DNA of 64,000 bases from Amphiscolops sp. MND2022. Its lineage: Eukaryota. The notes under the pieces were generated by a model. That model did not search any database. It was given only the letters and a program-made list of their open reading frames with translations, and was not told where the DNA came from. The stretch is taken from assembly GCA_964187785.1 (NCBI GenBank), contig OZ076409.1, positions 49,726,001-49,790,000 of the forward strand, written 5' to 3'. Below, in pieces: positions 19,201 to 63,490 of this stretch; position 1 is the stretch's first letter; each line of letters starts with the position of its first letter. The translations under genes were made by a program, and so were the position numbers.

Positions 19201-19288
19201 AACCGTGTTATATCGAGCTCCGGTATCACCTTCGAAGCAATCTCCTTTCTCGTGGTTCTCTCAATCCAATTTTTCCGAATCAAATACG

Positions 19289-19305
19289 TCCGGATCGGCG
19301 GACCA
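19289..19305 (-). promoter_or_regulatory. Primer-binding site of the BEL element (tRNA-Tyr-like)
   Basis: Minus strand TGGTCCGCCGATCCGGA lies 2 nt after the LTR end. The tRNA identity is from recall. Confidence 0.75.
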
Positions 19306-19307
19306 AA

Positions 19308-26900: not shown

Positions 26901-27054
26901 AAAACAAAAGCATAACTGAAACTCAACTCGCTGCTTCCTAATGCGCCCCATGAAAACAAATAAAAACAACAAAATCTATGAGGCAAAAACAGAAATTGCC
27001 TGAAGAAAATATACAAATTTTCAGTATAGTTTAATAAAAACGACAAAGAATAAA

Positions 27055-35778: not shown

Positions 35779-37864
35779 GGCAAATGACTCACCCATCCGC
35801 AGTGAATAGAGAGAAAACTCATCGCTTCATGAAACTTATTTTGTATGGATTTATACATAATTTCAGATTATCAGCTATGCCTGAATTTGTTTGCTACTGT
35901 TGCTAGTTCATTTTTGTGAAACAACAATCATTCATAAATAATGTACCAGATATTACAAGGTGTTAAAGTATTTGACATATAACACCGCTTAGTACGCATT
36001 TTGGCAAAATGAATAAATTATACGTGGCTTCTATGAGGCAATAACGCATTCTGACTAAAGTGTTTGAATTGAACTGCTGTACTAAGTTGGCAGCATATTG
36101 CAGTATAATTTCGTATTTCCAATACTTTAATCATGACATTTGAGAGTATGATTCATCACAACAATCTGGTCACACGGGCAGTAATGTGTTAGAGTTAATA
36201 CTTGCAATACATATGAGTCATACTACATACTGTCATTATCATGATTTTCTCATTAACGTTGAACAAGATGGGTGCTGTTAGTGTAGTAACCAATCAGAAC
36301 GCAGGAAAATTTTCGTCATGCAGGAATCTACTTATCGAAGTGAGGTAACTTACAAACCTATTTTTATACCAAATTGGGTACTATTTTTAGTGATTATATA
36401 ATCATGATTTAACCATGATTTTCCAAAAATTGGTCGTAACGCTGCTAAATTTAGCCCAAATCAAAAAGGAGTGAAAAACCCAAAAATATTCAATTAACAA
36501 AAAGCCTTCATACCGATCAGGCCTTTCTTTTCACCCTTTCAACTTTGGTTTGCTGGAGTAGAATCTGAAACAAAATTTGGAATCTGTGCGGAAGAAAGCA
36601 AACAGGAATTTGATGTTTCCGATTAAAATTTGGAAACAGGAAGTTGACAAATCAGAAGATAGTCGATTAATATGTGAGTCTGGCCAACTTACATTGAAAT
36701 TCGATACGTCTCAGAAAAACAAAATACCGCCTGGCAATGCCAGAGAAACCATTCAAACTCAAGCCTACCACAATCTCGGAGTGAAGTTTCATGTTGGAGG
36801 CCCATGGAAGCTGATCGCAGTTTCATCGATGTAGTCCGTGGACGGCTTGCCGACGAAGACCGCTTAGAGCGGGAAGAAACAGGACTGGCTTTTACCATCC
36901 CAGGGGAAAAATAAAAACAGACTGAAGTAATTGGGATTCGACAAAACGAAAAGAATTGTAGAAACTAGTGATCGATATAACCTAATGCTAGATTTAAAAA
37001 TAATCGAGAAAACAAAACTGTTTCTATAGGCGAAATTAGAAACACAAGACAGTACGAAATGGTGCAGCAATTTAGAGTGCAGGGAGGACGAAACGGAATT
37101 GACTTCGAACTTTGTACCAAACAGTGATGCGGCGTGGCTTCCGACTGACAAATTCAGAGCATGACAAATTAACATATTTGCGCAAATACTGTGCGCTGAT
37201 TGGATGAGCTTATTACGGACCAATCAGATCTGCCAGAGATATTGGTGTCCTAAACAGCATAGCTGAAACGATTTACGCATACATGATGCTCCGCCCCTTA
37301 GTGGCAGTTCATTGCCACGTGCGGAAACAGACAGTATTATACAGTATAATACCAACTTAGTGACCTAAAATAAATCAAAACCATATGACTACATTTTTCA
37401 TTCTCATTGATAACTAATCATCACGCATCAAACATATGACAGATTTGTGCTGAAATAGGTATCATGAAGCAGTATGTACATGATTTAGGAAAATGAATTA
37501 AATTAATTTCGAAATTTGTCGTGTGTTTTAATTGTGAGTCATGTAATTTGTTTTTATTTTATACCTTTACTGATGATGTTATTTAGAATGCATGCATTGT
37601 TCCCCATATAAGGAAACGAAAAACCACAAAAATAATTTAAATGCATTATAGAATTTGTTGTTCAAATTCCCATTCAAAAAATTGTTTACAATTAATTTTC
37701 ATCGTTGAAACCCTGTGAAGTGTAGAGACCGAAGAGATTATCACCATAAATGAAAATCATGAGGTGAACAGTATCTTGTTATGGAACTATTTAAAAGAAG
37801 AAGTAAGAATATAACCCTACGCCTTCTATGGAATTGCCGGGAAAGTCATAAACTAGAAGAGGGA

Positions 37865-40566
37865 TGGCATCAAGAATTGTTTACAACACCCTTAAAACCC
37901 AGGAAAAAACTCATCAACTGAAAAGAAGTGAGAACTTTTTATTCTGCGAATTTTCACAAAACGAATCAGTTGCTAATTTGAAACTCAAATTGACAAAAAA
38001 TATCCCAAAAACTCTCACCTCTTCTCAATTTACGAAGACATGCGATCTGTTTCTACAAACTCTCCCGGATTGATAAATATTTCGAGCTACTCTGGGGAGG
38101 AGTTTCTGACTGAACAACCTAACTCAGAACCCATAGACCTGAGTTTCAGAATCGGGGGACCACTTAATGATCCGATGACCGCATTCGTAAATGGAGATGC
38201 TGCAAGATTGTTCGCCGTAAGCGAACCTGAATCGAGACAAGATTCTGTGATTGATATCACAGGTACTGATATCGAAAAAGAAATGCTGAGCATGATCTCA
38301 GAGGATACTGAATTGCCTAACACTTCACCGATTTCATTCTTCGAATCGAGCGGGAGCAATAGTGAGGAATTGCTGTTAAATGCCAACTTCGCAAATGTCC
38401 CTAGAAACAACCATGATAGACCTGTGTTGGCTGTTCCGCCTGTAAGAGCCGAAAGATCGGCAAGACAAATACCTATACGGTCTGATACTGACGGCAATAT
38501 CCCTTCAGCTGTCGTCCAAGGAAATGGGCCGATCAGACTCATACCTATTACGCCCGTGGTTATTTCACATGAGATTCCCCAACCAAACTAAACTCGCCCA
38601 TATAACGAGGGGGGAATTCTGCAAACACCTATGTACAATGTACCGGCTACTCAATTCCAGTTATCACATTTAGCTCCTCAAAACATCATGCAACTCCCAT
38701 ATAACCCGAATACAGAGATACTGCAATCAGATGGGCCTGTTAATGTTGCATATTATTACAACGCCAATAGTCAGTTCTACCTGGATTCCCAAGGCACTCA
38801 TAGCAACATGGAGTTGACTGATGTGGGTTCTGCCCAAGGAGACAATGCTCCACGACAGCAGAGAAGCCCCTTACGAAGGCAACTCAACCCTCCTGTTATG
38901 CGTCATGTTCAGGGGAATTGTCACTGGTGTGGCAGAACTTACGACGAAGTTGCCCTTGATGCTCTGGCGGCCTACGAAGCTGCGACTGAATACCCAGGCG
39001 AGACAGTGAGAGGTAGAAACACCAGGTCGCGGGCCTACCTAGATGGGTTTGAGGCAGCACTCATTTGCTTCAAGAATGCTGGCCTGTCGCAGCCTAGAGC
39101 TTGCGTTGGATCCGCGGTGCAGCATTGAGGCAAATGACTCACCCATCCGCAGTGAATAGAGAGAAAACTCGTCGCTTCATGAAACTTATTTTGTATGGAT
39201 TTATACATAATTTCAGATTATCAGCTATGCCTGAATTTGTTTGCTACTGTTGCTAGTTCATTTTTGTGAAACAACAATCATTCATAAATAATGTACCAGA
39301 TATTACAAGGTGTTAAAGTATTTGACATATAACACCGCTTAGTACGCATTTTGGCAAAATGAATAAATTATACGTGGCTTCTATGAGGCAATAACGCATT
39401 CTGACTAAAGTGTTTGAATTGAACTGCTGTACTAAGTTGGCAGCATATTGCAGTATAATTTCGTATTTCCAATACTTTAATCATGACATTTGAGAGTATG
39501 ATTCATCACAACAATCTGGTCACACGGGCAGTAATGTGTTAGAGTTAATACTTGCAATACATATGAGTCATACTACATACTGTCATTATCATGATTTTCT
39601 CATTAACGTTGAACAAGATGGGTGCTGTTAGTGTAGTAACCAATCAGAACGCAGGAAAATTTTCGTCATGCAGGAATCTACTTATCGAAGTGAGGTAACT
39701 TACAAACCTATTTTTATACCAAATTGGGTACTATTTTTAGTGATTATATAATCATGATTTAACCATGATTTTCCAAAAATTGGTCGTAACGCTGCTAAAT
39801 TTAGCCCAAATCAAAAAGGAGTGAAAAACCCAAAAATATTCAATTAACAAAAAGCCTTCATACCGATCAGGCCTTTCTTTTCACCCTTTCAACTTTTGTT
39901 TTTAGCTTTGAAAACATAACAATATGTACAATTTTCTCAACTTTGTTTCAACTCCGTTTTACTTTGCTCATCAATCTAATTGAAGTTCTTCTATCCAAAA
40001 CAGCAATTTAACCTGACTAGAATGGGTAACAAAAAGAAATAGAAGATCTAGAAAAGGACAGTCACCCTCACTTGAGAGAGAATTGAACACTTTCAAAATA
40101 GAAACATCACAAGGTAATGAAACTGTTATCGAAACTTTAGGGAACTTTGGAAATGTTAGTTCGGTTAGGAACGATGAAGCAGTTTTAGATTGCGGAACAC
40201 AGAGTGAAAATGAAATGCAATTCTGGACCCAAAATTTATCTGATAAGACGAATAAGGAAGTAACAATCTTAAGAAAGGAAATGGATGAGAAACTGGAGAC
40301 AGTGTTGTTGAAAGAGATAAAAATAGCAGAAGAACACAATCCGTGCCAAGCTGGCGATATCAAGAGCAAAACACCCTTAAAGCGGGAACTTCAAAACACA
40401 TAGATAACGAAGACGGTGAAGAAAACCCATCTGAACCAGAAAATCAGGAATGTGAAATACAGGATAATCTTTTCAGGCCATACAAAAAGAACGAACTCAG
40501 AACACCAATGAATGAATCTAAATGACTCTGTGGTCCTAAATGAAGACCGTACATGAGAGGATGATC
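37865..40566 (+). repeat. Gypsy 3' LTR (~2.7 kb, 5' boundary inferred)
   Basis: Purine tract AGAAGAGGGA (37855-37864) followed by TG. The 3' end coincides with the end of homology to the left LTR. Confidence 0.55.
38040..39128 (+). pseudogene. LTR-borne ORF (copy 2)
   Basis: Near-identical to 34690-35778, with the same stop. Confidence 0.6.
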
Positions 40567-44339: not shown

Positions 44340-44647
44340 GTTCGATTTACTAAGTTCGAATTTGTACTAGTGCAATAAGTTCGAATGGAAGAGTTTCGAG
44401 ACACCAAGTTCGAAATTTCATTTCGGGTATATCCGGTGTGCATACACCGGGTATGCCCCACATTTCAGTTTTTAGGTTCTTTTAGATCCTAGGCGGTGGA
44501 GCTCTCAGTTTCTCGTGTGAATGATGTCCAGTTTACACCGGATATGCCCGATACGAAAATTCGAACTTGATGTCTCGAAACTATTCCATTCGAACTTATT
44601 GCACTAGTTCAAATTCGAACTTAGTAATCGAACTTATTGCCCGAAGC
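44326..44647. mobile_element. Foldback MITE with AAGTTCGA-rich long TIRs
   Basis: GCTTCGGGCAtTAAGTTCGAT...ATCGAACTTATTGCCCGAAGC, with ~100-bp inverted arms. Confidence 0.8.
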
Positions 44648-46427
44648 CAACTGGACATCCTTCACACAAGAACCTGAGAGCCCACCGGCTATGATCTAAA
44701 GGAATCTAAAAACTGAAATGTGGGGCATATCCCATTACAGTGCCAAAAGTGGGTTAACACACTTTTGTGCTATTAAGTCACCGAAATCCACTGACATACT
44801 TTTAAACATGTATTTCACTGATTTTCATTGGATTCCGCTGTTGCCTGTTTTGGATTCCACTACCATATCTAGCTAATGTACAAAAATGTGTGCACCGAAA
44901 TCCACTGCTTTTCACTGCCAACTGATTGAACCAATCGCGTCAGCTTATTTCAACTTTCAGCGAAATTCGCTGAAACTTGCAGTGGATTCCACTCCAGCTT
45001 ACAGTGGATTCCACTTTTCAACTTGTGGAATTGACTGCAAAATGAGTGGAATTGACTGTAAGCCAAAGTTGAATTCACTGTAAGCTGAAGTGGAATCCAC
45101 TGCAAGTTTCAGCGAAAGGAGAGATCAATGAAACCTTAATAATAAAATCTTTCTAATAATCTTCTTTCATTTTTTCATGCTGAAACAAACCTTTTGGCCC
45201 TTTAGTTTTGCCCCCCACACCTGTTTTAACAATTGATAATTTATTGAAAACAATTTATTTATTATAAACAATTGATATTTATTATTATTAATTTATTATT
45301 ATTTTATTATGCAGGAACGGCGAAAAAATTTCGACTCAGCGAAATGTTCGATAAAACGAAAACATGCTAATATGACCTTTACTGTCGGGGATTTTTATTC
45401 GTTTACCCGAAATTTTGATTTCGATATTTAGCCAATGTTCGATTATCGGAATCCTACTGTAAACAACATCTTGAAAAGTGTAGGGAAAAGGAAAAAGTTC
45501 CAGACTTTTTATTTTTGTTTGTTTCAGGTCAAATTCATACAAATTCTGTGAAGCAATCGGCGAATGGTGGGAACTTCAAAATCACTCTTTATGGTTGCAA
45601 TGTTTACAACTTCAATGGTTACAACTCACACCTGATGCGTTCCTCTCTTCTCTATTATTATAAAGTTCTCTCCTTATTACAAAAGTTTTGTTAAAAGTTT
45701 TGTTTACGTCTTTCTTTTTGTCATGATAATATGTAGTTTCTTCAATTGAAAAAATTTTCTTACCATTTTTTGCCAAGTACTTGTAGTGCTTGAACTGTGT
45801 TCACGGTCAACTCACGGTCGAATAACAACAGAATCAGTTGCTGGCAAATCCTCTATACAATGTCAACCGACTCACGGTTGATAAACAACTCACGGTGGAG
45901 AACAAAAAAAATCAGTGAAAAATTAGTGAAAAATACGGTTGTAGGCCCCAGGATAGAAAAAAAGGACTCCGTAAAAATAATGATATTTTATGGACGTAAA
46001 GCAATTTTCCCTAATACTTCACAAAAATATGTGTTCCCTAACTTTAAATTACATGACTACTGGAAATGCTAGTAAACTTTCGCCAAGAAAAATCCTTCCA
46101 CATGATTTTTTGGGAACAATCACACCTTATTTTATCACCTACTAGTGAGCGCACGTATGACCTTGTAGTTTTAGTTCAACGCGTGCAATCAAATAGTTTC
46201 AAACAGGTGTTGAAGTATTATTTAAACAGCGTGCTGTAATACTGTGAGAAAAATGTTGCAAGATTAAATTTATTTGAAGTTGAGGCTAAAATTGAGGCGC
46301 AGAAGACGCAAAAGGAGGGAAACTGAAACGCAAAGAATATGATTCTGATAGTTTTTCGGCTTCATCATTATCGACGATTTGATACACCATTGACACGCTC
46401 AATTTCCAAAAGCTCATTGACACGCCA

Positions 46428-49400
46428 TTGACACACTCATTGTCTAAAAGTTCAGAAATGTCAGAATTCGAAAAGTTCAATATATCACTCGATGATGGGA
46501 AAGAATTCATAGATTCCAAAATACTAGACTTTATATCAGGAAACACGTTACAAAATCGTGGACGGAAACTCACTTCAATTGTTGCTGAAATGGTCGTAGG
46601 GACCACTCTGAAGACAGACGATCCTATTCGAAAATTACCAATTAAAGGACAGCCCCAGGGATCTGTTTTTGTTGCGTCGAAAATAATGAAACTTTTAATG
46701 CGGGGCTATAAAGACTTACCTAGGAACGAGAAGAGAAGAAAATTCGTTGCAAAATATTTCAACACCAGTTTTTTTCCCGATGTCGGTACTTTTACAAATG
46801 ATAAAATTTTTTCTCAACATGAGATGGTTGAAGAAACACCCCTTGAAGTAACATTCCAAGAAGAGAGAGTGCTACAAAAGACACCAAAAATTAATAATTC
46901 ACAAGACCAGCAACGATCAGATATGAATATTACGCAATTACAACCCAAAAGGTGGCACAGAACTAATAAGAAAACTTTTTGGACCAAAGTCCTGAATTTT
47001 GCTAGAATGCATGGTATACCTATTCACGGATTAGCCACAATTCTCAAAGAACAGCATCAGAAACGTAGCATATGGCGAAAAAGAAGCGCAAGCGGTAATC
47101 ACATTCGAGACTTGTTCACGGGTCTTTTGGAGGACAGAGGCTCCTCCGAATGCTCCAGGTACGAACTTTAAATCAAAATGAAAACTGGCAACATGGAAGA
47201 TATCCTCAATGCAATTCGACAAAGGCTAGTTTCTGTTGGTTTAGGTGCTGTCAGCCTAGTACCGTCAATTCGTCACATGAAAAGAGCTACTAGCCTCATA
47301 ATGAAATTGTTTGTTACAATTTGCGAGCCTCAGCGAACCTATTCTGGATTTCGAGTCAGTTTACTGAAAGCAGTGACGTTTGCGTCATTAGTTTTACTGC
47401 AAAAAACCAATCTTGAAGGCCTTAAAATTGATATTTGGGGTGACGGTTGCGAAATAGGGGGGATTGAGGTAACGCGTCTAGCATTCAGAATTTTGAACAC
47501 CACAGTTAGCAGTCAATCAACGAAAGCTGTCTTCTGTTTTGCATCATATCGTGGCAAAGATGGCCGATATGCAATGGAACAAAACTTTGGCCCGTCTATC
47601 TTGGGTAAGCAAGAATCTGGATGGCTATACCGCCAGACAAAAGAACTACAAGCCTTGGGCGTTGAAATTACATACAGTGGTCACAGCCCGTTCTTGACGC
47701 GTTTGGTCCTTGGAATTTCAACTGAACGTTCAAGTTCTCATCCGTCACAACTTCCGATATATGTATGCGATGAAAATTTCCTGCCCACCCGCTGCTCAGA
47801 TGTTGATGGAAGACGAACATCTTTGAAGATCCCATTCAGACAACATGTTCCTAGAGAAGTATTAGCAAGTATAATCGATGTCAGAACAATCTGCCCAGAC
47901 GCTACACACATGATAACGCGTTGCACTGAGAATGATATTAGAAGAGTGGCTCAGAAGGTAATTAGCGACAAACATCCCTGGGAAGTTTTGAGCATACAGC
48001 GCTTTGAGAAAAATTTGACCAGCCGAGAAGCTAAAAGACCGTCTTTTCAGTTCAATATCACCCACAAGAACGTAGGTAAAACCCCAGGAACAGTAGGACC
48101 ACTGTCATTAGCAGGGTCGAATGCGCTTACAGTTATAGCTGAAACAGAAGAACTTAGAAGAGCTCAATTTGGGACAATCACGAACCTTTATGACGGAGTT
48201 TGGACGACCGAGTTACTACTTGGAAGTGAGGATGGATACAACTTGGGGGCTGCAAAAGTACTTAAGTCTTTACATCCACATTTATTTGACAAACGGGACC
48301 CCATAAATCCAAGAAACGAAGAAAGATATATATCAATTTATGACGCTTGTGAGCTTCTACGACAAAGTTCAAACCAGTGTGCTATTCTGTTGAGAACTCA
48401 GGGAACATTTGATGTCGACACTTGCAAACGATGGGCCGAAACAAACTTTCAAATCAATTTGCTCCTCTTCGGGCGAAAGGGGCTGTCACCATACAAGCTG
48501 TCACCAAACGATGGGCTGAAACAAACTTTCAAATCAATTTGCTCCTCTTCGGGCGAAAGGGGCTGTCACCATACAAGCTCAAGCTTCCATTGATAACCAA
48601 ACTAGTGGAGAGCGGACACATCGAGAAGCCATGGAATCACCTCTGCGAAGGCTTGGAAAAATCGAACCACAATGCGAAAAGAAATTTTCAATCCCGAACC
48701 ATGAGAGGCGGTGGCTCCATTTACCATCAAGATCCATTATTTCTGGATACTGCATTTTCGTTTTGCCGGTTCCTGGATATTTCTTCAACAAGTTCCGAAA
48801 AGAAAATATCCAATGTCATTGAACATGTAATAAAAACACTCAGGACTGAAGCGACTTTAGAGGCTGCCAAAACTTATCTAGACATTTGTAGAACTCCCTT
48901 GGCGCTACCCCGCCTTGCCGTTGGCGAAAAGAGAGAATTTTGCGACTTTCTAGGAGGATTGAGATTTACAATTGTAAGTAGGTTCAAGCGTGGGCTCACA
49001 CAGGATTTCCTCAAAGATAGAATTTCCGAAATGGGAGGTGTCGTTTATGAGAAAGAAAACGCGGAGAACATAATGAAATCCCATTCAAATATCTTGGATT
49101 TTTACGTTATTGTCAAAGACGAAGAGGACCTAATAAACGCGACCGGCGATAAACATCAATTGGAAGCCATGAGAAGAAAACTGAAGCTCCATAGACATTG
49201 TACCGCAAGCGAGTTGTCAACAGACGCCGGAAGCAGAGAAGATGAAAAGTGTTCAACAAAAAAGAAGTTGTCTCCTGCAGCTTTGGCCTGCAAAAGATTT
49301 GCGTCGGGGGGTTTCATGTTCATCACTGTTGAATACGTACTCGAAATGATGAAAAGTAACGTCATTCTGGACCATGAAAATTATATTATAAGGCCTGGAC

Positions 49401-49549
49401 TCTTGATCAACCCGATGAAAATTAATGACATGCGACGACTCTTGATGGATCAAATAGATGATAACAAATCAATAGCGAATACGTCAGCCATTGTGGCCTT
49501 GAAAAGATACCGAAACAACCTAGTGAAACAACAAAACTCCAGCAGATGA
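46428..49549 (+). pseudogene. DDE transposase (CMC/Transib/RAG1-like fold) with C-terminal BRCT-like domain; disrupted
   Basis: IWGDG...FRIL...SQS...YRGKD; SG(H)SPFL; PDATHMITR; SPY...EGLEKSNH...TMRGGG; LGGLRFTI...LKDRISEMGG...ITVEYV. In-frame stop at 47169 and an 80-bp insertion frameshift at ~48500. Confidence 0.75.
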
Positions 49550-49710
49550 TCAACTTTTACTCTGATTTCTGCAAATGCTTGTTACAATAAATGATTTCGA
49601 AGACATATGTTTTAATCTTTGCTTGTGGTACTAATTTAGCTTTTGAACATTTTTTTCTCGGAAACTTAGACAAGAAATTTTAAACATTTCAAAAGGGGTA
49701 CATTTTAACG

Positions 49711-50465
49711 AATTCAAAAGGGGTACATTCAGTAAAGCATTAGTTCTAAATAGACTTTATTGCAGTGGATTCCACTATTCTGGAAAGTGTTCTTAATCCT
49801 GCGAAAAGCGAAATGCGGAATTGACTAACATATACCATTACATTGACAGTGAATTCCACAAACAAATGCTTAAACATTTGCAAACCAATTCAAAAGGAGT
49901 ACATTCAGTAAAACATTAGTTCTAAATAGACACAAATTTATATTGCAGTGGATTCCACTATTCTGGAAAGTATTCTTAATCCTGCGAAAAGCGAAATGCG
50001 GAATTGACTAACATATACCAATACCTTGACAGTGAATTCCACAAACAAATGCTTAAACATTTGCAAACCAATTCAAAAGGAGTACATTCAGTAAAACATT
50101 AGTTCTAAATAGACACAAATTTATATTGCAGTGGATTCCACTATTCTGGAAAGTATTCTTAATCCTGCGAAAAGCGAAATGCGGAATTGACTAACATATA
50201 CCAATACCTTGACAGTGAATTCCACAAACAAATGCTTAAACATTTGCAAACCAATTCAAAAGGAGTACATTCAGTGAATTATTAGTTCTAAATAGACTCA
50301 AGTTTCTATTGCAGTGGATTCCACTATTCTGGAAAGTCTTCTTCATCCTGCGAAAAGCGACATGCGGAATTGACTAACATATACCAATACATTGACAGTG
50401 GATTCCACAAACAAATGCTTAAACATTTGCAAACTAGTTCAAAAGGGGTACATTCAGTGAATTAG
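49711..50465 (+). repeat. 183-bp tandem array (~4 units)
   Basis: GCGAAAAGCG recurs at 49801, 49984, 50167 and 50350. Confidence 0.95.
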
Positions 50466-51369
50466 TAGTATATCCAGCAAAAAAAATCAAATCAGGCTAT
50501 ATTAAATAAAATTGACAATTAACTCCCTCATAGTCGTGACGAAAGAAATCTTGAACAAAGTTAATGATCAAAATCAACATACCGTATATTCCGGCAAAGA
50601 AGCCCCCTCCCCCTTTTTTTGAGTTTTTGGTGGTCAAAAGTTTGGGGAGGGGCTTATACGATGAACATAAAACGAAGACCGTTTTTTTCGGAATCAAAAA
50701 TTTGGCATGATTTTAGAGGATGTTGCAGTTGACTTCTTTTTGAGGAAGTTTCTGAGCCCGAAGAAAGGACAGATGATGACTCCACTTTTAGTCCGTGAGA
50801 ATTGAAAATTGATTTTATACCAAGAAAGTTCATTCAATTGACACTTATTGAACTTTTATTTTCTTTTATTTTTCTAAAGTGCATTTCCAAAAATTTTGGT
50901 AGGTTAAAACTTGAGTCATTTTGTATTCTAGAAGGAGTTTGCTCTCTTTCCATTTTTCATTTCGCTTCAATATTTTGTTTACCATTCATTTGTTCAACAC
51001 TATTCGTTCACTCAGCACAATTGGAATGAATCTGACGAAAGTGTCAATTAAGTAAACTTGTGTGCAAATGTAGTGGTATAAAACAAAACTGTTACATAAG
51101 TTTACGGAACCGAGAATGCTAATTCGATTTTGATTGGCTGCCGAAGTGGATATAGGAAATGTTCTTCTAGTTCAGGAAATTGATTCTTTGCCGTTCGACC
51201 TTTCAATTCAACAGCTTGCTAGTTTTGTTTAATTCAAGATACATTCTTTAAGATTTCTCTTACCTTTGTCTAATTCTAGATTCCCTAAACTTTGCCTGCT
51301 TCCTCATTCCACAATGGTTAGTTTCTTTCTTAAGAATGTTTTACATCTACAATTTGGGATACGAAGTAA

Positions 51370-51830
51370 AAATTTCAGTTTCAGTTGGAAAAAACTGAGT
51401 ATCCACTGTGAGTATAAAAAAACTGTTTTTATACACACCGCTTTGGTTTTGGTACTTACCGTGAGTAAGTTATTGTACTCGTTTTTGGTATCCACCGTGA
51501 GTAAAGTATTATCCTGCATTTGTATAAAAATTTTTTGTATCCACCATGAGAAGTGGAAAATCTTTAGTTAGAAAAAAAATTGTACACACTGTCAGCAAAA
51601 ATGTTAGTTTCAGTTGGAAAAATTCGAGTATCCACCGTGAGTAAAAATAATTCAGTTTTAAGAAACACCGCTTTGGTTTTGGTACTTACCGTGAGTAAAT
51701 TATTGTACTCGTTTTTGGTACACACGGTGAGTAAAGTATTGTCCTGCATTTGTATAGAAATTTTTTGTATCCGTGAGTAGTGGAAAAATCTGAGTTAGAA
51801 AAAAAATTGTACACACTGTCAGCAAAACTG
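51370..51830. repeat. ~230-bp tandem repeat x2 built of ACCGTGAGTA motifs
   Basis: TCAGTTGGAAAAA at 51381/51610 and ACACCGCTTTGG at 51435/51665. Confidence 0.85.
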
Positions 51831-51979
51831 CTCTTGAATTTTCATACGAAATTTTTGGTTTCTCCCGAGTAGTAAAAACAAATCTGAGTTTGAACTGCCA
51901 TCCTTTGAACAGGCCTGAGTGAAAGACTGTTCACAATTTGCAGAGAAATCTGGAAGTAAAATATTGTTATCGAATTCGT

Positions 51980-52230
51980 GGGTCTTTTCTGCTACAACCC
52001 CTCCCTCCCAGCAAGTTTACTCCCATCGCACTCAATTCACTAAGAAGTGAATCAATATAAAGTCAATCTTATACAACAATTCTTGTCCTAATTTTTGAAA
52101 TGATGATAGGTGTTCATCATTAAGAAGTGAATCATTAAATAGTGAGTCAAATACCTCGATTCTTATCCTGACAAAAAAATATTGGGGATAATTTTTAAAG
52201 AATAGAGTGGGGGAATAACAGAAAAGACCC
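51980..52230. mobile_element. MITE, same family as 6076-6292
   Basis: GGGTCTTTTCTG...CAGAAAAGACCC. Flanks GAATTCGT/GAATTCGA (7/8 TSD). Confidence 0.75.
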
Positions 52231-52494
52231 GAATTCGATCTCTATCTCGTTTTAGGGGAAAGCAATCCAATACCCATGTCAAAGACTAATTCTTTTTGAT
52301 ACTCAACTGTTGTCAGATGAAATCAGAAAGCAATGATACGATATGAAGAAAAGATTAAAAGTTGTTGTTAACATAGACAATCAAAAAAAATTTCGCGATA
52401 GCAAGATCAAAGTTTTTACATATTATTTGAAAAATTAGGTATACTCAGTTTTTCTGAGATAACATAGGCTGTAAAAAGTCGACTGTAAAAAGCC

Positions 52495-52565
52495 GACACG
52501 ATAGAGATTCGAACCCACGATCTTTGGCTTCATAGTCTAGTTGCTTACCACTCGGCCATAGCGCG
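52495..52565 (-). ncRNA. tRNA-like Pol III sequence (pseudogene or SINE head)
   Basis: A box TGGCCGAGTGG and B box GGTTCGAATC. Acceptor and anticodon stems pair poorly. Confidence 0.55.
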
Positions 52566-52828
52566 TTGTTATTTGTTTGTTTTTATTTAACCATATTGTT
52601 AAACAACCGAGATACTTATCTCCATTTTAAAATGATGGCGTTCTAAATTCATTTGTGGTTTGGCATGTTCTGTTTTTTTTTGCTTGTTCGTTTCCTCTTT
52701 TTTCTGATTGGGAAAACAGGTCTTTATTTGAAATGGCAGGTTGTAATATCTTTTAGCGGTTTGAAATTTTGGCGTTTACATGCGAGACGCTTCGAGGATA
52801 AACTATAATGTTGTTTTTGTTTCTACAG

Positions 52829-55341
52829 ACTGAATACAGCTGCCCCAACTGTTCGTACAAGTCGAACCGCCGCACGATTTTTGAGAGGCACCAAAAAACC
52901 TGCGGTACAAAGCAGCCGCAAAACAAAGCCTGTCCCCGTTGCAAGAGGGTTTTCGCCACCCTTGTAACGTTCAAGCGGCACATCGAGAAACCGAGGTACT
53001 GCACGACAGACATACCCCAAAATGAAAGAAAGTACAGTAAGTAGATCAACTATGTCAACGATTTGCGGCTCTTTTCGTTCCCCCCACCACATTTTTCATG
53101 AAAAAATAGTGAAAAACTTATATCACAAAGACGTGAATACAAACCAGAAAGCCTCAAATTTATATTTATTCTTAGTGTGACAGTTTAGGATTTAGATACA
53201 AATAAATACGAACATAATACTAACATAATACGAACATAAGTATAGTCTGCAAGTTTTATATATTCGTCTGCTTTCGTAAAGTACCTAGAGGACATGCCGC
53301 TATCAGAGGAGCCGTGGAACTGCTGCAGGTGGGAAAATCAGCAAGAAGACGAAAACGGCATGGTCCTGAAAGCACTCTCTCGTGGCCAGCCGATATTGTG
53401 GAAGAACGGGGCTACGAACTCGCGAGGTTTGAAGCTCCCAGTTTTGCCCGCTGAGGACTTCGTCCACCAAGTGGAGTTCTTGCTGCAGCACTTGGCCAAT
53501 CCTGCAGCGAAGCTTGCTGCAAAGTCATCACGGCTACCACAAGACCAACAGGTGAACATATCCCGCCATTCTTTGTTTTTTTTTTCGATTTTCACAAACT
53601 TCATTCAAGTATAGCGTTTTACCATTAGTGATAAAATTTATTGTATACGTTGAATCAAAACATATTGAGATTTAGTATCCACTAAGTCATCGTTGGCAGT
53701 GGATTTCACTGTAAGTTATCTAAACATTGGTAAAGTAATTTCAAAGGAGTATGCTTGAAATATATTTTTTTGAATTTTAGGTCAGGTCTTTAACAATGAG
53801 AGAGTACCTGGACGAGCAGCGAGCGGGGCCCTCAGCAGCACCCACGGGAACATTTCCTGTCAATGTCAATGACATTGCACTCGAACGGAATGTAAGTTTT
53901 TTTATCATATCTTGGAAGGTCTCATATTGGAAAAAATTGCTCTTTGAATTTGGTGTCTTTACAGTGCCAAAAGTCAGTGAAATACATGATGCACACTTCT
54001 ATTGTTCAAATTTTTAGCAACTAAATGGATGTTAAAATTGGCGACCACTGTAAGGAGTCTTTGTTCTGAAACCGTTTGCTGAGGTCTTGTCGTTTTGGTT
54101 TAGTTTTTCCAAGTACCGGATTTCGTCAGACACTGTGCGGCCGATCATCTGGCAGATGAGTGTGTGGATGCAGCAGGGCACTTCACCGAGGCTACATCCA
54201 ATTATTTGCTGGTCTCAAACGACCAGTGTCTCACGCCGTGGCATGTCGACTTCTCCAGCACGACTGCCTTTTATACTGTCGCCCGAGGACAGAAGATCTT
54301 CAGGCTGGTGGAGCCGACAAGCTCAAATTTGCAGCTCTTTGAGGAGTGGAGCAATATCCCCACAAAAAGGTAAATGTACTCAGATCATGTACTGAAAACA
54401 TACTCATCTCAAAATCATCATTTTGCGAAGAGCACTTTATCAATCATGCACATGATTCAAAATCATTGAACCAGTTGTTTCGTTTAAATGTATACTAATT
54501 TGTTTTTATTTAGACCAACTTCATTCGGGAACCTGAAGGCCCTGACAGGTTGGGTCCACAAACTTGTGGTGGAAGCAGGCGACATCCTCGTTTTGCCTGC
54601 ACGCTGGCCACAAATAGTGGCAACAAAGGGAGACGCCATTGCTTTTGCCTCCAACTTCCTCGCTGTCACACATTTCCCTCTGATTGTGGACAGTCACCTC
54701 AACGCCAGTCAGCAGGAAATAGACGACGAAGAGGTTTTTCCCGGAGTTGTTCGTGTCTATGCTGTGCTACAGTTTAAAACACGACAACTCCAGCGAAAAC
54801 TCAATTCCCTGAGAGGATCATGGAGCCCCCTCTTCTCCAGCCCACAACTGACTCTTCTGAAAGAGCAGATCAGCAGTGAGCTCGACGCCATCAAAATGGT
54901 AATCAATGTTTGTTAATTATGAATGGTAACTGATAATGTAGAAAATGTTGATAATGGAGAGAAGAACTAATCTGTTTCACGGACTGGGTTGTGAACTACG
55001 GATTTTAATGGTTCTCGTTTCGAACTGCCTAACAATTTAAACTTTTTTTCAAATGTAATTGTAATTTTGACACATTTCTCATTGAATTCGCTCTATTCAT
55101 CATTGTCAATGGCTTTTGTTACCAGGTGTATCCAGCTTTCAATTTGAATCAACTGGGATTGAGGGGTCCGGAGAAGCCCTATTGCGACCCAAAAGGGCCA
55201 GTGTACGCCTTCACAGGGACTGTGAAGGAAGTCCGAATTGGGCCTACACACCAGGCCGAAATCCCCGAAATGTCACAGAAGGGAAGGAAACGTGACCGCA
55301 GCATCCTTCAAAAGGAGGAGGACGTCTTCGATATAGGTTAG
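52829..55341 (+). CDS. Spliced C2H2 zinc finger + JmjC (KDM2/KDM7-like) + ELM2-like protein, ~480 aa; first exon not located
   Basis: Exons 52829-53036, 53289-53551, 53781-53891, 54104-54369, 54514-54898 and 55126-55341 join through GT-AG introns into 1449 nt with no internal stop. CPNC..H..C and CPRC..H; TPWHVDFSST...GQKIF; GDILVLPARW...SNFL; VRIGPTHQAEIPE. AATAAA at 55616. Confidence 0.85.
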
Positions 55342-55709
55342 AAGCAGCAATTGTTGATGTCATAATTTTCGAAATCTTGATGTTAAACCTTACATAGATA
55401 TTTGACCACTAGTCTATCGGAAAACCTTGAAATTGTATCTGTTGAAAAAAAATCACAAACCCCATCGTTAAGATCTGTTTAGACACCCTGCCGCCTCTCA
55501 TTGCAAGCTGCGACACTTTCAAAGAGTTTTTGAGCAAGAAAATTGCTCTCTACAGCCTGGACTTTGCAACAAGCCTACATTGCAAAAGACGCCTCGAGAA
55601 AAATTCACTATGGTGAATAAAGAAGCTGCCTGGTGCAAATTTTTATAGTTTATTGTTTTTTTATTAAATTTTTTAGTTTAGAATTGAACAGAATTTAGTT
55701 TAGAATTTA

Positions 55710-56160
55710 CTCCTTTATATTGGTTTGCAAATGTTCGAGCATTTGTTTGTAGAACTCACTATTAATGTATTGAAATACGTCTGTCGATTCCGCATACCGC
55801 TTTTCGCAGGATGAAGAATACTTACCAGAATAGTGGAATCCACTGCAATAGAAATTTGAGTCTATTTAGAACTAATATATCACTGATTATACCCCTTTTG
55901 AATTGGTTTGCGAATGTTCAAGCATTTGTTTGTGGAATCCACTGTCAATGTCTTGGTATATGTTAGTCAATTCCGCATATCGCTTTTCGCAGGATGAAGA
56001 ATACTTTCCAGAATAGTGGAATCCACTGCAATATTATTTTGTGTCTATTTAGAACTAATGCTTTACTGAATGTACCCCTTTTGTATTGGTTTGCAAATGT
56101 TTAGGCATTTGTTTGTGGAATCCACTGTCAATGTATTGGTATACGTTAGTCAAATCCACT
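55710..56160 (-). repeat. Inverted copy of the 183-bp array (~2.5 units)
   Basis: TTTTCGCAGGATGAAG at 55801 and 55984 is the reverse complement of the 49.7-50.5 kb unit. Confidence 0.93.
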
Positions 56161-56527
56161 TACTAGTTCTGGCTAGATGCATTTAGGTTTAGTAGAACGT
56201 TTGTACCAAAAATCTGAATGTGCAAAAACCAAAGTAACAAAGCATTATTACGTATCGGGAACAGTTCTGAATAATAATTTGTAATTATCTACTGGGGAGA
56301 ATTTTTCAAGAAAGTAGTCGCAAGTGAAAAAAGTTTTTTGACATCATTTATTGTAACAAGGACAATATAACTGAAACAATCGATTAAGAAAAAGAATTTT
56401 ATCAGTGCAATACCAACAAAAATACCATTGAATTTATTTAGGGTAACAAAACAGACGCTTTTTGAAGATGTATTTGCACATTTACTCACGGTGGATATCA
56501 AAATTGCTACCCGTATTGGGCAACAAA

Positions 56528-57792
56528 TTATTCAATGTGCGCATGTTGAATGTTTTGCCTGAAGCTTTTCGATGGACTCCATTTTTTGTAGTGGCCTTCA
56601 GTTGTAGTTATGTGGCACCTGAGTGAGAACATCATAAAGTTGCGATGTTCCGTGAATTTCAAAGTCTTGATCAATGTTGCAGGCTCATCTTCAAGCGTAT
56701 CTGGAATGATGCCCCAGTTCTGGCCCAATATAAAATCTAAGCTGTTGTAGCTTCCCAAGTTTCCCGTTTCAACTTCTATTGAAAATTTCTCATGTTCTCT
56801 GCTTGACTCCGACTTGAACCCACAGACACGTTTTGTCAGCTCTGTTGCAGGTATCATGTTTGTCACAGTTGATGACTTCTTGAACGACAAACCAACACAT
56901 CTCTTAATTGCAGAAAAGACTGCAAACGTTCTATCAACATCATTATCAGGGTGAAAAAATTGATTTCCACGTTTTTTAAATAGTCCGAGATCTTTAACGA
57001 ACAATTGTTTACTGGCATCCTAAGTTCGCAGTCTTCGTCGTCCATGTATACCATTATTGCAAATGGTTTCAACTTCTGTGCACTGTAGTACAAATCCTCC
57101 ACTTTGAATTCCATTCCAGACAAAGTAATAATGGATCCTCTTTGACTAATTCCATTGACACATGGTACATAGCTTAATTTGACATCAACATCGGTTTGCG
57201 GTATCAATGCTGAAAAGTCTATTTCTGGTATTTGTGTTTTAGGTCTTTTCTGTTTTGGTTCTTCCCGATGTTCCTGCCTCGTCTCTTCAGCTTCCTCGTC
57301 GTCTTATGCTTTCTCATCGTGAACATGGATATCTTCCACTGAGTTCTTCAAATAGCAATAGGGGATAAATCTAAACAATTTGTCAATCTCCACGACACGC
57401 TCATGGGTAAATGGGTCATTCGTCGAAATAGTTCCCGTTTTGATTTTTCCATGGGAATCAATGAAACAATGCCCCACACACTCACAATCGGGTAGCCAGA
57501 ATGTCACAGGCTCGTTTTTTTGCAGTCGGTTTGGGGTATACGACAGGGGTTTAGAACGCTTTTATGACATGACTGGTTCCGAATGTTGTGCTTTTCTAAT
57601 GTTCCACCTGTTTGGGTCAGGACGCAATTCTAGGGGAATTTCAATTTTCTGCAGACGATTGTTCCAGTCGATCCATTGGATTTTCAGAGACCAATCACTT
57701 ATGAACGCTATTATCTTCGCAGACTCCCAAATATAGGTTTCAGGGTCGAGGATTTGGACAATTTCATTTAATTTAAAAGTTTGCAGAAGCAT
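56528..57792 (-). pseudogene. ~420-aa cargo gene with N-terminal Tudor/chromo-barrel-like domain; two stops and one frameshift
   Basis: ORFs 57562-57819, 57304-57507 and 56863-57207 share a frame, then shift to 56528-57004. FKLNEIVQILD...WESAKI...LKIQWIDWN. Confidence 0.55.
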
Positions 57793-58279
57793 TGTAGTGG
57801 AGATTAAAGTTGACTTCAACAGAAAGAAATACTTGAGCTTACTCTGAGCATAAACTGTTCAAATTTGTGTAAAGTGATTACCAGGTGTCAACACATAAAC
57901 TGCGCGAAAAAGAGGCTAATTTTACGGTGATGATCCTAAAAGAAGGTGTCATTCCATTTTGAGCGCTCAATAAAAGAAATTATTACTAGCAATTAGTTTT
58001 TAAACTCATCTCGTGAGTGTTAATATAATTGAATAGGCATTTGAGTCCCGAAAGGACTCAACCACCGTAATAAACCTGATAACACTTACTGGTTGAAATT
58101 ATTAATTTAGTCACTGTGAAGTGCAAGGGTGAAATCGAGTCTCTGCTAATTACGAAAACGACGCTTTATCGAAAAAAATTAATTACAAAATTGTCATTTC
58201 TTTTTACATCATAATTTTGATTCATTCAGCGAAATCCACTGTCAGGATTTGTTCTCCTAGTTTCATAAATACTTCAAAC

Positions 58280-60196
58280 ATGCCTGACAAAATTTCAAAT
58301 CTAGAATCGACACGCTTGTGTCCATCCCAGACTTCTACACCTGTGCAACAGTCACATCGACGATCTACCGACTGGAATGTGCCGCCAGATTTCCTCAGTA
58401 ATGCATCCATGTTTTGTCCGCCATCTTATTCGCCAATTCCATCGGCCCCCGAGGAGGGTTTCTTCAGTGCAACTAGAATGATGAACTCTGATGGGATCGA
58501 GCACTTGATTGAACATACGCCCCCAGAAGCTCTAGAACATTTACTGCAGAATGCTCACAATCTGACTCAAACTCCTTTGCCGCCTGAGAACCCACTACAA
58601 CAGGACCGCCCGTCACAGAATTCACTGCCTCACCAGAACTTGCCACCCCAGAGCAATGTGCCCGGGACCAATGTGCCACCCCAGCTCAATGAGCCACCCG
58701 GGAAGCGTCCATTTGACTCCCAGTGCAGTGAGGATAATTTAAGTAACAGCCAATCCAAATGTGCGAAAGTTACTGACTTTGACAACAACATGTACGAAAG
58801 AACGTTGGCTAAACACGTGCAGGCATCGAAAGAAAATGTGGGACTAGTACAAAAAGGTAAGTTGGAACTCTTTCGATGCATAATTACAACCCTGTTCATG
58901 TATGCGGTACCACCTATGCTTGAAAGTTCCATCCGGAATGTCCCGGTACACTCAGTTGTGCAAATCGTGATGGATCACGAAGAAGATTCACTGAGCGACG
59001 CCTTCAATCTCTGTGTGGAACACACAATTGGATCATCGGAACGAACAATTCACAAAGTCTCCGGAAGTCTTGTGGAAGCATTGAAAGTATATTTTACACA
59101 AATTCGGCCATTTTTTTACCAATCACACCAAGTTAGCCATTGTTCGATACGAAAAGGCCGACCAACGTCCAATTAATACAGAGTTATTCTTTGTGAATTC
59201 AATTGGTAAAACAGACTTCCGCGTTAAATCTGTTGTAGATCTTTTCATTTCAAGCAAAAAAGCAGAAACAAAAGATCAATATACATTGAAAGGTAAAGTC
59301 GCGGAACTGATGCCCCTTTCCAATGACCCATGTTTAAAATCACCAAGCTGAAACATGCAGTGAATTTGGTTTTTTCGAATGTTGAAGGTTTCGACAAAGA
59401 CGATGTGAGAAACGCTGTTCGCGCCCGCCAAGACCAGCAAAGGTACACTCGCCAGTCAGCCAGGGGCTTGCTATACTTTGAACACGTTTCTGGAAAAGTT
59501 GCTATTAACTGTCTTGAGTAAAGAGTGGCGGCATTTTTTCAGCGACAAAAGTGGACTTCGCTGGAGAATAAGAACCAGGACGTGAAAAAAGTGACAGCAC
59601 AGTTATTGGTTCTCTCTAACAACCAGTCAATTAGAAAATCTTCGCAGGTACCTGAGAGCAGTGGAATTCGGTATGCTGGACTTGCTCATAATTTGCCATA
59701 TGAAGAACAAATTTTGTTGTCGCAACGATGTGAGACGCAGCTGTGGCCTGGAATCTGTTTAGCCAAAATGTCACAATTTGGGAGATATGTGATTGCCACA
59801 CAGAAATTTTCAAAGGACGACATTTTGATGGATTACCATGGCGAGGTGTATTTGAACATGTCATTGAGCCAAGTCCTCGAGAAAGAAGGTGTGGAGCAAG
59901 AGTTCGTTCTGGAGGTTAAAAGTGGCGCCTCTAGAAGAATCATTGATGCCTCCAAAGAGATTTGCCCCCTTCACCCAAATATTCGCTGCCCTGGACGTCT
60001 TGCCAACCACTCGCAGTTGAAATCAAACGGCGCCAACATGAAGCCCACAGTGATCGAATTGTTTCAAAATGGTAAAAAGATTGTAGTGTTCCGAGCTACA
60101 CGTGATATTCTACTATTTGAGCAGCTCCGTTTTGATTACAATGACCCCATTGCCAATCAACTTTTCCAGGAAGATTCTCAACCTATGTTTGACTGA
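58280..60196 (+). pseudogene. Cargo gene: Pro/Gln-rich N-terminus, possible degenerate tyrosine-recombinase fold, C-terminal PR-Set7/SETD8-like SET domain
   Basis: SET motifs GRYVIAT..F...D....YHGE, IIDAS, GRLANHS and ATRDI..FEQLRFDY. ORFs 59330-59521 and 59525-60196 are in one frame, split by TAA. A probable intron lies at ~59132-59238. Confidence 0.75.
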
Positions 60197-60937
60197 TGGA
60201 ATCGTCAGAAAACTCCGTTTACAAAACACTTTTCTTTGTTGTGTATTCAATTTTTCACTACTTTCGTTTTAATTTCACTTGTATGTAAACACTGATTGCT
60301 ACAAGTACATTTGTTTGTTTTTCGTAATATCGAAACAAAACACCGTGAATTACATTTTCCCTTGCAACGTCTTCTTCACTCGAATTTAGATTTCCATTCA
60401 TCATTCGGCTTGTAATTCAATTTGAAATTTTGGTATCCGCCTTGAGGTATTTGAAAAATGGAAACTAGTTGTACCTAAAATACACTAAAATACACAAAAG
60501 AGCTGTGTGTGAAATTTGATGTAGAATTGATAAGGTCTCCGTTGCAGTCAGCAGTATGCTTGAAGTGAGTTTTCCGGAACCAAATTTTGGTATCCACCAT
60601 GAGGTAAATGAAAAATGAAAGCTAGTTATACCTAAAGATATGTGTGTATAACTAGGTAACTAGCAGGAACTGTGTGTGAAATTTTGATGCCCACTATGAT
60701 TCAATCAAAGTATGAAAAAATAACAGTCAAACTAAAGCGGTAAAACGGTGCTTGATTGCGGTAAAAACTCACTGGGAATGATTTGTCAAATGAAGAAATT
60801 CTGAGTCCTTCTTTTCGTGACACTTGCTGATTCTGAAAAAGTTTCTCATTTTCAAAACTGAACTCGTGAAGGAAGGGCACTGAAGTACATGAACTCCACT
60901 TTTTTTCGATGGTTGATAGTTTTTGTGAGTTGGTATT

Positions 60938-61030
60938 GAAATAATTCAGCGAAATAATTAGGTGAAATAATTAGGTGAAATAATTCAGTGAAATAATTCA
61001 GTGAAATAATTCAGTGAAATAATTCAGTGA
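60938..61030. repeat. 13-bp minisatellite (GAAATAATTCAGT) x7 in the right subterminal region
   Basis: Directly visible. Confidence 0.95.
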
Positions 61031-61790
61031 ATTCCACTAAACGCTGCAGTGGAAATAATTAGGTGAAATAATTCAGTGAATTCCACTAAAACACTGCAGT
61101 GGAGTCCACTGCAGCTGATAGTGGATTCCACTGCGGCTATCGGTGGAGTACATTGCGGCCATCGGTGGAGTCCACTGCAGCGTTCAGTGGAATCCATGGC
61201 AGTGTTTTGTGGGATCCACTGCAAGATCCGAATGTTTGAGGTATTTGATAGTGGAATCCAATGCTTTGCAGCGAAATTCGCTGCAGAAAAATCGCCAAAA
61301 GAGTGGAATCGACTGCAACCTAATAGCATTTGTTAGTGGATTACGCTGCACGCTTTCCAAAACTGCCGTCCAGCGAAATCCACTGCAAATATTCAAAATA
61401 CCCACTTTTGGCACTGTAATGCCGGTGTATGCACGGTCGCCTCACCATCGCAAAGACCAGCTCCTACTACGATCGAATCAATTTGTTTTCAAAAACAATG
61501 TTTTTGGCCCTCGGCTTTTCCCCCATTTCCGATGGATCCACGCCACCCCTTGGAGCCGCTTATGTTCACAGTTTGCTAAGCGAGGTCGAATGGGAGCAAA
61601 GACCTAGCGGGAACGGAGATCGCGAAGCGATCTTAGTGGGAGCTGGTCTGTAACGGTGAGGGCGAGCGTGGATACACCGGGAGTGTACGCCTTTGATATA
61701 ATTGCTTGGGTCTAATGGAATTAGATCTAACTGTTAGGTCTAACTTTCAGATCTAGTTTTATCTAAAATACTTAGGTCTAACCCTTTTAT

Positions 61791-62345
61791 GGTAAATGGT
61801 CACTTGGCTTAATGCCATTTGGCTTAAAGTCATTTGGCTTAATACAATTGGTCACTTGGCTTATTTTTTTGAGCTAAGTGTCTCGGGTATTGGTCACTTG
61901 GCTTAAAGTCATTTGACTTAAAACCACTTAGTTGAAAACATGTGGCAGATTTTGTCGAATTTATCTTTATAACGTAGTCAGCGTATTATCATAACATGTC
62001 ATATCAAGTACCATTCGGATATGTCCCCATTTCCTCTAGTGCCCTGCGGACACCTTGGGGCCGCTTATATTCCCATCTTGCTAAGCGAGATCGAACAGGG
62101 GCAAAGACCTAGCAGGAACGAAGATCGCGAAGCGATCATAGTGGAAGCTGGTCTTTGCGACGGTGAGGGCGAGCGTGCATACACCGCATATGCCCCACAT
62201 TATGATATTTCCGGGAGTTGACATATTTATTCCTTGAGTTGGAATGGAGTTGGCTTATTTGTGGTCACTTGGCTTAAAATTTTTAATCCAAATGACTCGA
62301 CAAAAAAATTAGGCCAAATGGTAATAAACCAAGTGACTGGTAACC
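61791..62345. mobile_element. MITE with GGTCACTTGGCTTA-rich arms and the shared hairpin core
   Basis: GGTAA...TAACC termini. Flanks CCTTTTAT/CCCTTTAT. Core at 62021-62200. Confidence 0.65.
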
Positions 62346-62950
62346 CCCTTTATGATCTCATATGTGTTCTGAACGCGAAAATATAATGTGGGGCATTTGC
62401 GATGTATGCAGGCTCGCCCTCACCGTTCCCGCTAGGTCTTTGCTCCTGTTCGACCTCGCTTAGCAAGATGGGAATATAAGCGGTCCCAAGGGGCCGCGGG
62501 GCACTAGAGGAAATGGGGACATATCCGAGGCACGTTTTATACTTTATATCACTTTTTAGTTTTAGATCCCAATTGACTTATATTTTTTCTCAAATTAGAT
62601 CAAATTAGAAGAGATTTTTAGACCTGATTAGTCAGACCAATTTATTTAGACCTCAGTTTTGCCCCCTCTCTTAGATCTATTTCTTTAGACCTGATTCCAC
62701 GTAGCCGACACTCCGTATATGGGTGGCTGTAAATAGGTCGAATTTTTCTGGTCGAAATGACAGAGGTCGAACCTTTCGATCGAATTGCAGGGATCGAAAG
62801 GAATGCGGTCGAATTTTATCGTAATTGTTGTACGGCTCGGTCGCTTCGCTCCCTTCGCCAAGTAGCAAAATTGAGGCATGGCCTTATGGCACGTCGCTCC
62901 GCTTCGCTTCGCTCCTGCATTTAGCGCACTAAGAGTATGTGAACATAGCT

Positions 62951-63490
62951 GGGAACAAGACGTTTCGGCAACAAGATGGCGGAAGACGTTTCGGCAACAA
63001 AATGTTGCCGAAACGTCTTTCACCTGCTGTGAAGACGTTTCGGCACCAAAGACGTTTCGGCAACAAGAAGAATAATCTGTAGTTTTCTTTAGTATGAAAC
63101 GTGCCCCATATATGTCCCCATTTCCTCTAGTGCCCCGCGGCCCCTTGGGGCCGCTTATATTCCCATCTTGCTAAGCGAGGTCGAACAGGAGCAAAGACCT
63201 AGCGGAAACGGAGATCGCGAAGCGATCGTAGTGGGAGCTGGTCTTTGCGACGGTGAGGGCGAGCGTGCATACACCGAATATGCCCCCACATTAGAAGGGG
63301 AAAGTACTGAAAATTTTGCGAGACATTCACGAAAAGTGAAAATTTATTCTTAAGAAGTAAAAAAAAGTCACAAAATGTTGCCGAAACGTCTTTCACCTGC
63401 TGTGAAGACGTTTCGGCACCAAAGACGTTTCGGCAACAAAAAGTTGCCGAAACGTCTTCCGCCATCTTGTTGCCGAAACGTCCGGAACCC
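62951..63490. mobile_element. MITE with GACGTTTCGGCAAC arms, 8-bp TSD and the shared hairpin core
   Basis: GGG...CCC termini. ACATAGCT is duplicated at 62943-62950 and 63491-63498. Core at 63112-63292. Confidence 0.88.

Follow-up and report, generated by a model that had tools for sequence, protein, structure and literature searches.

The window analysed, a stretch of 64,000 nucleotides of contig OZ076409.1 from Amphiscolops sp. MND2022, contains a whole DNA transposon of 16.7 kb at positions 44733-61421, a span given by the alignment of sister copies and flanked by a 2-bp target duplication (CC/CC). The element starts with a 22-bp left terminal inverted repeat that begins CATTAC (44733-44754, plus strand) and ends with the right terminal inverted repeat (61400-61421, minus strand). 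Further inwards lie left subterminal repeats with a GTGGA(A/T)TCCAC-type motif (44783-45104), a 183-bp tandem array containing the family motif (49707-50480), a second 183-bp tandem array which is about 90% complementary to the first and inverted relative to it (55714-56179), and, in the right subterminal region, repeats of 13 bp and 22 bp which carry the family motif (60924-61386). The element carries genes for a transposase, a zinc finger-JmjC protein, a protein with SH3-like barrels and a SET protein, and the JmjC gene is bracketed by the two inverted arrays.

When the organism's own genome (1.07 Gb) was searched, with the best 40 of 1250 candidates scored, sister matches showed 84-97% identity and 38 sister copies were retrieved. 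Copies of the window family were dispersed over 13 chromosome-size contigs. A 2-bp target duplication was observed in 26 of the 27 sisters in which both ends are present, of which three stem from one duplicated insertion, and the 22-bp terminal repeat had 274 exact matches genome-wide versus 0 for the control, some of them in short derivatives. Since terminal inverted repeats, target duplication and dispersed copies are all present, the element is a cut-and-paste DDE transposon. Non-autonomous short derivatives with the same 22-bp ends were seen at G000:C1:5002016-5002245 and C1:12576915-12577368. Copies L027, L037 and L039 (G000:C10 35.38-35.54 Mb) have common flanks and are one insertion that was duplicated; all three lack the transposase start, and in L027 the JmjC, SET and barrel genes are undamaged. 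The window copy is inserted into a small family of palindromic repeats, of which several copies lie in the neighbourhood (44347-44732 and 61422-63290). Elsewhere in the window, two tandem duplications at 27055-33272 and 33514-39128, with units of about 2.3 kb and 3.35 kb, contain identical open frames without a Pfam match, positions 193-1772 hold exons that presumably resemble dynein heavy chain, and 10732-26901 hold what we take to be decayed LTR-retrotransposon-like frames.

The transposase gene (46458-49549, plus strand) codes for a DDE enzyme with a C-terminal BRCT domain and is disabled in the window copy by a stop at 47169-47171 and an 80-bp duplication at 48425-48579. Its catalytic triad, which we assign through motif likeness to RAG1, is conserved in alignment A1 (D362 in 22/23, D442 in 33/34 and E734 in 33/33). 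The fold was modelled on the intact relative L117 (pLDDT 75), which shares 44% identity with the window family. Foldseek matched this model to RAG1 (E 7e-7) and Transib (E 2e-5), VIA gave a Z of 15.9 to the RAG1/Transib fold with an rmsd of 4.4 over 417 aligned residues, and the C-terminal BRCT fold was found with a Z of 11.5. Searches with the transposase sequence gave no Pfam match and only unnamed homologs, the PDB sequence search with a piece of the window transposase gave nothing useful, Atlas returned no usable match, and no relatives were found in the metagenome and viral contigs searched. An A-run before the BRCT part (48797-48806) differs in length from copy to copy; its most frequent length is out of frame and that of the window in frame. 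Slippage, sequencing error or a programmed frameshift may account for this variation.

The CMCT clade, in the portion of its description available to us, consists of EnSpm/CACTA, Mirage, Chapaev, Transib, Plavaka, ESTA as well as Lanisha, with PlavakaB having CATCA ends and 2-3 bp duplications (PMC12730594). The present elements resemble this clade, as portrayed there, in their 5'-CA..TG-3' termini, a duplication whose 2 bp fall within the 2-5 bp of the clade, RAG1/Transib-like fold and subterminal repeats, and one family of the present clade appears to end in CACTA. They differ from it in the C-terminal BRCT domain, the CATTAC ends, the set of four genes and two zinc motifs: C(2)C and H(3-4)H in the stretch from the second D to the E were not seen in residues 440-520 and 690-745, and the alignment blocks show single invariant histidines, H515 and H731. 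The element is thus considered to work like a CMCT transposon, but it is not assigned to any of the named CMCT superfamilies.

A sequence-only reading had described the JmjC gene as an intact spliced gene inside an otherwise decayed transposon. The six exons on which it was based (52829-53036, 53289-53551, 53781-53891, 54104-54369, 54514-54898 and 55126-55341) do rejoin, with AG/GT borders, into 1449 nt or 483 codons with one terminal stop, and stops, frameshifts and the transposase duplication have indeed disabled the transposase, SET and barrel genes in this copy. Comparison with the sister copies, however, does not bear out that the JmjC gene is intact. In an exon model based on conservation among copies and not on RNA, the plus-strand gene consists of a first found exon with two C2H2-type fingers (52829-53036), a remnant of exon 2 that has lost about 200 bp with the acceptor and third finger at its 5' side (53273-53551), exon 3, where the JmjC region begins (53781-53891), exon 4 with the HxD motif at 54242-54250, the Lys at 54293 and a private Trp→Arg change at 54302 (54104-54369), exon 5 with the third iron ligand at 54611-54613 (54514-54898), exon 6 with the N-terminal half of an ELM2 match and a GT donor at its end (55126-55336), and a probable exon 7 with the true stop (55483-55616). 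The latter is 82% conserved in the older copy L135, and its variants common to several copies are 5 silent and 3 changing. With exon 7, the family gene has 585 codons counted from the first found exon.

No sister match in the own-genome search spans positions 53273-53277, where the sisters have about 200 extra bases comprising the intron end, the true exon-2 acceptor and the third C2H2 finger. The window copy thus lacks 164 nt of a 443-nt exon 2, and this gap is private to it in the alignment of the window with 37 of the 38 sisters (L091 is without the region). The acceptor used in the 483-codon join is a cryptic exonic AG, and 5 of the 23 AGs within 53060-53400 yield an open join. The apparent stop at 55339-55341 overlaps a GT donor present in 37/38 copies and followed by AG in 38/38, and two sisters have GTAAG at this position, hence no stop, so that it is probably a splice donor. 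At the third iron ligand, 35/38 aligned copies have His, the window and one other copy have Gln, and one has a deletion; owing to this His→Gln change the full catalytic residue set is not present in the window copy, while across the family the residues are kept at D 33/38, K 37/38 and distal H 35/38. Relative to the column majority, the window copy shows 14 amino acid-changing and 7 silent codons; the former include Trp→Arg and Gly→Trp, both in the JmjC core. Donor and ATG scans and comparison with the older copies L107 and L135 gave no convincing start exon; since older copies, whose upstream DNA differs, retain the acceptor at 52829, the start exon should lie farther upstream. A tRNA-like stretch on the minus strand (52506-52575), upstream of the first found exon, was noticed by eye and not called by ARAGORN. 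The flagged locus is an ordinary decayed copy.

To compare decay across the cargo, two duplicate copies were dropped, damage was defined as a stop, frameshift or splice defect, and the transposase was tallied in two parts because of its slippery A-run. Undamaged JmjC genes (4/36) were no commoner than undamaged SET (5/34), barrel (4/34) or transposase core (5/32) genes. Neither does the openness of the frame exceed chance, as 8 of 36 JmjC copies are without stops or frameshifts and the Poisson P0 is 0.21. Rare variants gave an omega of 1.03-1.22 across all genes (JmjC 1.13). In contrast, variants present in at least 3 copies gave an omega of 0.28 for JmjC (Fisher p 1e-9), 0.37 for SET (p 0.001), 0.43 for the transposase core (p 3e-4) and 0.49 for the barrel gene (p 0.11), and between families the JmjC HxD segment showed a pN of 0.05-0.11 versus a pS of 0.79-0.92, with silent sites saturated, in 4/4 distant pairs (16/21 rows). 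These results indicate that copies decayed neutrally once inserted and that purifying selection acted in the course of the family's history; neutral rare variants, depleted shared changes and low pN between families together are the mark of a gene that served the moving element and not a fixed locus. At CpG sites of the element C→T changes were not in excess (0.0127 versus 0.0109), so DNA-methylation silencing has left no trace.

The proposal that an intact, domesticated gene has survived in a decayed transposon is therefore very improbable and already largely refuted. It could draw on the open 483-codon join, on the fact that the window deletion and the His→Gln change are known from the assembly sequence alone, and on the lower number of JmjC frameshifts per 100 substitutions compared with the other genes (4.6 versus 8.1, p 0.003; stops, p 0.10). 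This lower rate, however, accompanies exons of 52% GC and leaves out 15 splice-site hits, the acceptor, third finger and iron ligand are gone, changing codons outnumber silent ones in the window copy, rare variants and the undamaged share behave as in the other genes, and the copy is one of dozens of dispersed insertions instead of a single fixed locus. The suggestion of selection thus holds for the transposing lineage, and fails for special retention or domestication of the window copy.

Regarding the encoded protein, the window exons gave Pfam matches to C2H2 (27 bits), weakly to JmjC/Cupin_8 and partially to ELM2, the latter over positions 1-23 of 53 with 23 bits at a cut-off of 21.7. ELM2 was also detected by Pfam in the families L097 and L113 (28.2 and 18.9 bits) and by eye in L103, with matches covering only 22-27 of the 53 positions, within 1-27, whereas inspection by eye revealed none in L099, L117 and L120. 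SANT had no match in the exons scanned, which did not include exon 7, and PHD, CXXC and F-box were absent from scans of the exons downstream of the start exon. Hence, of the ZnF-JmjC-ELM2 architecture proposed at first, the C2H2 fingers and a weak JmjC domain were recovered and ELM2 only in part. That this architecture is unlike KDM2/KDM7 was borne out, since C2H2 or ELM2 occurred in 0 of the 41 database relatives, out of 150 listed, that were scanned with Pfam, all of PHD/JmjC/JHD types. The likeness to KDM2/KDM7 (Jhd1, PHF8), the best PDB and database relatives, lies in the JmjC core: HxD, Lys and distal His were kept in 12/12 JmjC representatives, and the family form shows the full Fe/2-oxoglutarate residue set. 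The HxD exon was nearest to the solved chains of PHF8, KDM2A and KDM7A (E 3e-10 to 1e-8), with 43.5 bits for PHF8 versus 40.8 for KDM2A, and exon 5 gave no homologs among longer proteins at E<=0.001, which is weak evidence.

A JHD-family search found one host KDM2/7 gene, to which the element JmjC core is only about 35% identical. In a midpoint-rooted tree of 104 columns, with 7 rows without the motif pattern and L166 left out, the host gene and 31 canonical rows formed a branch (96/96) that excluded the 11 element rows, and the element proteins sat on a long separate branch, grouping with three unnamed database proteins at 92/92. With the host gene among canonical enzymes and the element proteins apart, capture looks old and single, as far as midpoint rooting allows. 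A divergent, element-like JmjC core was also noticed in the ENA/Logan/JGI proteins P0035, P0039, P0041, P0050, P0051, P0053, P0066, P0071, P0102, P0139 and P0161, which may mark related elements in other organisms.

The barrel gene (56482-57792, minus strand; 437 aa in the family) and the SET gene (58280-60196, plus strand; 639 aa in the family, with a C-terminal SET domain) are disabled in the window copy by 3 frameshifts and 2 stops and by 2 frameshifts and 1 stop, respectively. Among named solved chains, the SET domain is nearest to SETD8/KMT5A, which accounts for 14 of 15 PDB rows; this is a weak match (E 1e-4), and another SET protein occupies the top row. The barrel gene had been called Tudor-like. 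Its low-confidence model (pLDDT 62) gives SH3-like barrels that are tied among BAH (Z 8.9), PWWP (7.7), KOW (7.4) and Tudor (7.2), so that Tudor is one of several readings; the best Foldseek rows were Spt5 (E 4e-3) and the SETDB1 Tudor (E 3e-2), with the 53BP1 Tudor among the weak rows. For the barrel protein, searching PDB by sequence yielded no useful match, and Atlas leads remained below 0.8. Just beyond the end of the L113 element, a SET frame unlike that of the kit was observed at L114:5013-5861, which may belong to another mobile element.

The four genes recur in families of this genome with transposases 25-48% identical to that of the window. All four were found in 6 of 11 sampled families (window, L180, L181, L172, L162 and L166), transposase, SET and JmjC in 3/11 (L097, L099 and L113; 20 kb examined each), and SET and JmjC in 1/11 (L103), while the L174 element had no JmjC within 40 kb. 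A four-gene kit is thus present in several families. A JmjC match lay within 21 kb of 93 of the 106 transposase matches outside the window family, the chance expectation being about 0.6% each. First-look candidates numbered 1131 and 1395 for the JmjC exon (two queries, the best 150 of each scored) and 979 for the transposase, totals which do not equal copy numbers. In young families, 17/17 copies compared were 99.7-100% identical (L097/L109, 99.98%). Transposase and JmjC distances were correlated (rho 0.75, p 0.015, n=7 families). Gene order and strand differ in every family, and we infer that recombination between inverted arrays caused this shuffling.

The repeats are specific to families: each element has its own dispersed 10-mer, common only to related families, and the window motif has 40 matches inside the element versus 2 in the other 47 kb. 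Of 10 elements scanned, 8 have C2H2-type fingers, and the pattern detected none in the other 2. In the young family L162, a tandem array of acidic repeats resembling exons was noticed upstream of the JmjC gene (11394-14278), without a finger by pattern. We consider it slightly favoured (probability about 0.55) that the locus is a damaged copy of a cargo gene of the clade whose working form likely binds the repeats of its element and clears histone methyl marks that cause silencing; judged from sequence features, the earlier idea of an element-targeted chromatin modifier is plausible. The JmjC gene would be spliced and expressed, its zinc fingers would bind the family repeats of its own element, and the JmjC domain would remove a repressive mark from histones, for instance H3K9me1/2, H3K27me2 or H4K20me1, as PHF8 does. 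Removal of silencing marks would make the transposase gene readable, and the SET and barrel proteins would act with JmjC as writer and reader. In the consulted extracts of the respective papers, PHF8 erases H3K9me1/2, H4K20me1 and H3K27me2 (PMC10349869), and the targets of VANC proteins are tandem repeats differing from one related element to another (PMC5735166).

Several points count against such anti-silencing, namely the L174 element without JmjC, the 2/10 elements without a finger, the lack of a CpG C→T excess and a similarity among fingers that is inseparable from that among transposases. In CACTA elements repeats serve as transposase sites, and by analogy the family repeats may be such sites here. 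Since PHF8 and KDM2A score almost alike, the substrate may instead be H3K36, and its demethylation would repress; likewise, ELM2 domains usually recruit deacetylases, which points to repression. A self-limiting repressor, whose fingers bind the element, whose ELM2 brings a deacetylase and whose KDM2-like H3K36 demethylation keeps transposition tolerable to the host, would agree with the closeness of the KDM2A score and with the ELM2 matches in the window family and two others. We regard it as unlikely, given that these matches cover about half of the domain and that no similar motif was noticed by eye in L099, L117 and L120, and that several families are very young and numerous. It is rather unlikely that the kit steers repair at excision and insertion sites via H4K20 methylation, choosing between end joining and copy-restoring homologous repair by means of a writer like SETD8, an eraser like PHF8, a reader of Tudor type and the BRCT domain on the transposase. 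SETD8, H4K20me2-53BP1 and H4K20me0-BRCA1/BARD1 do govern pathway choice according to the accessible part of one paper (PMC8897848), and the SETD8/KMT5A rows, the BRCT fold and the weak 53BP1 Tudor row are in line with it; but the SET match is weak with another SET protein on top, the barrels tie among four folds, a writer and an eraser of one mark would oppose each other, and break repair needs no sequence-specific fingers. The modest identity to the host KDM2/7 core and the long separate branch would also suit a JmjC that hydroxylates or demethylates a non-histone target, for instance its own transposase, or that serves the host otherwise, a role made quite improbable by its fusion to zinc fingers and its travelling with SET and chromatin-reader-like genes.

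Transposon-borne chromatin enzymes for DNA marks (TET/JBP, VANC) and SET genes are already known. The fungal TET/JBP transposons, PlavakaB among them, are likewise DNA transposons with a 2-oxoglutarate dioxygenase proposed to erase silencing; in the sections available, theirs acts on DNA and moves between superfamilies (PMC12730594), whereas the present enzyme is of the JmjC histone type, has zinc fingers and tracks its transposase. SET genes inside DNA transposons are described for Phytophthora HarbingerS, MuDR and proto-Helentron, which, in the parts of these sources at hand, belong to other superfamilies and have no JmjC partner, and the Helentron SET is Clr4-like instead of nearest to SETD8 (PMC12730594, PMC4067079). 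The Arabidopsis VANDAL VANC factors resemble the present system in being element-encoded, with family-specific tandem repeats that differ between relatives; in the excerpt consulted, they act on DNA methylation in MuDR-type elements, and targeting is shown there and inferred here (PMC5735166). The available passages of PMC12730594 and PMC4067079 contain none on JmjC or histone demethylases, and our literature search, which did not extend to Repbase Reports and most subscription journals, found no JmjC-carrying transposon. Apparently new, as no paper was found, are JmjC as a conserved transposon gene and a writer-reader-eraser set kept across a clade.

More tentatively, and possible rather than probable as a whole, the elements could form an undescribed RAG1/Transib-related lineage with a complete, self-addressed chromatin kit (an eraser of histone marks guided by zinc fingers, a writer like SETD8, a reader with barrels and a transposase with BRCT), with cassettes reshuffled between inverted arrays, fingers and target repeats co-evolving within each family, and hundreds of extra histone demethylase genes in a single genome. 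If the anti-silencing mechanism holds, it would show how elements defeat histone-based silencing and provide natural pairs of fingers and repeats that can be compared family against family. It also cautions that JmjC and SET loci which do not belong to the host number in the hundreds in such genomes.
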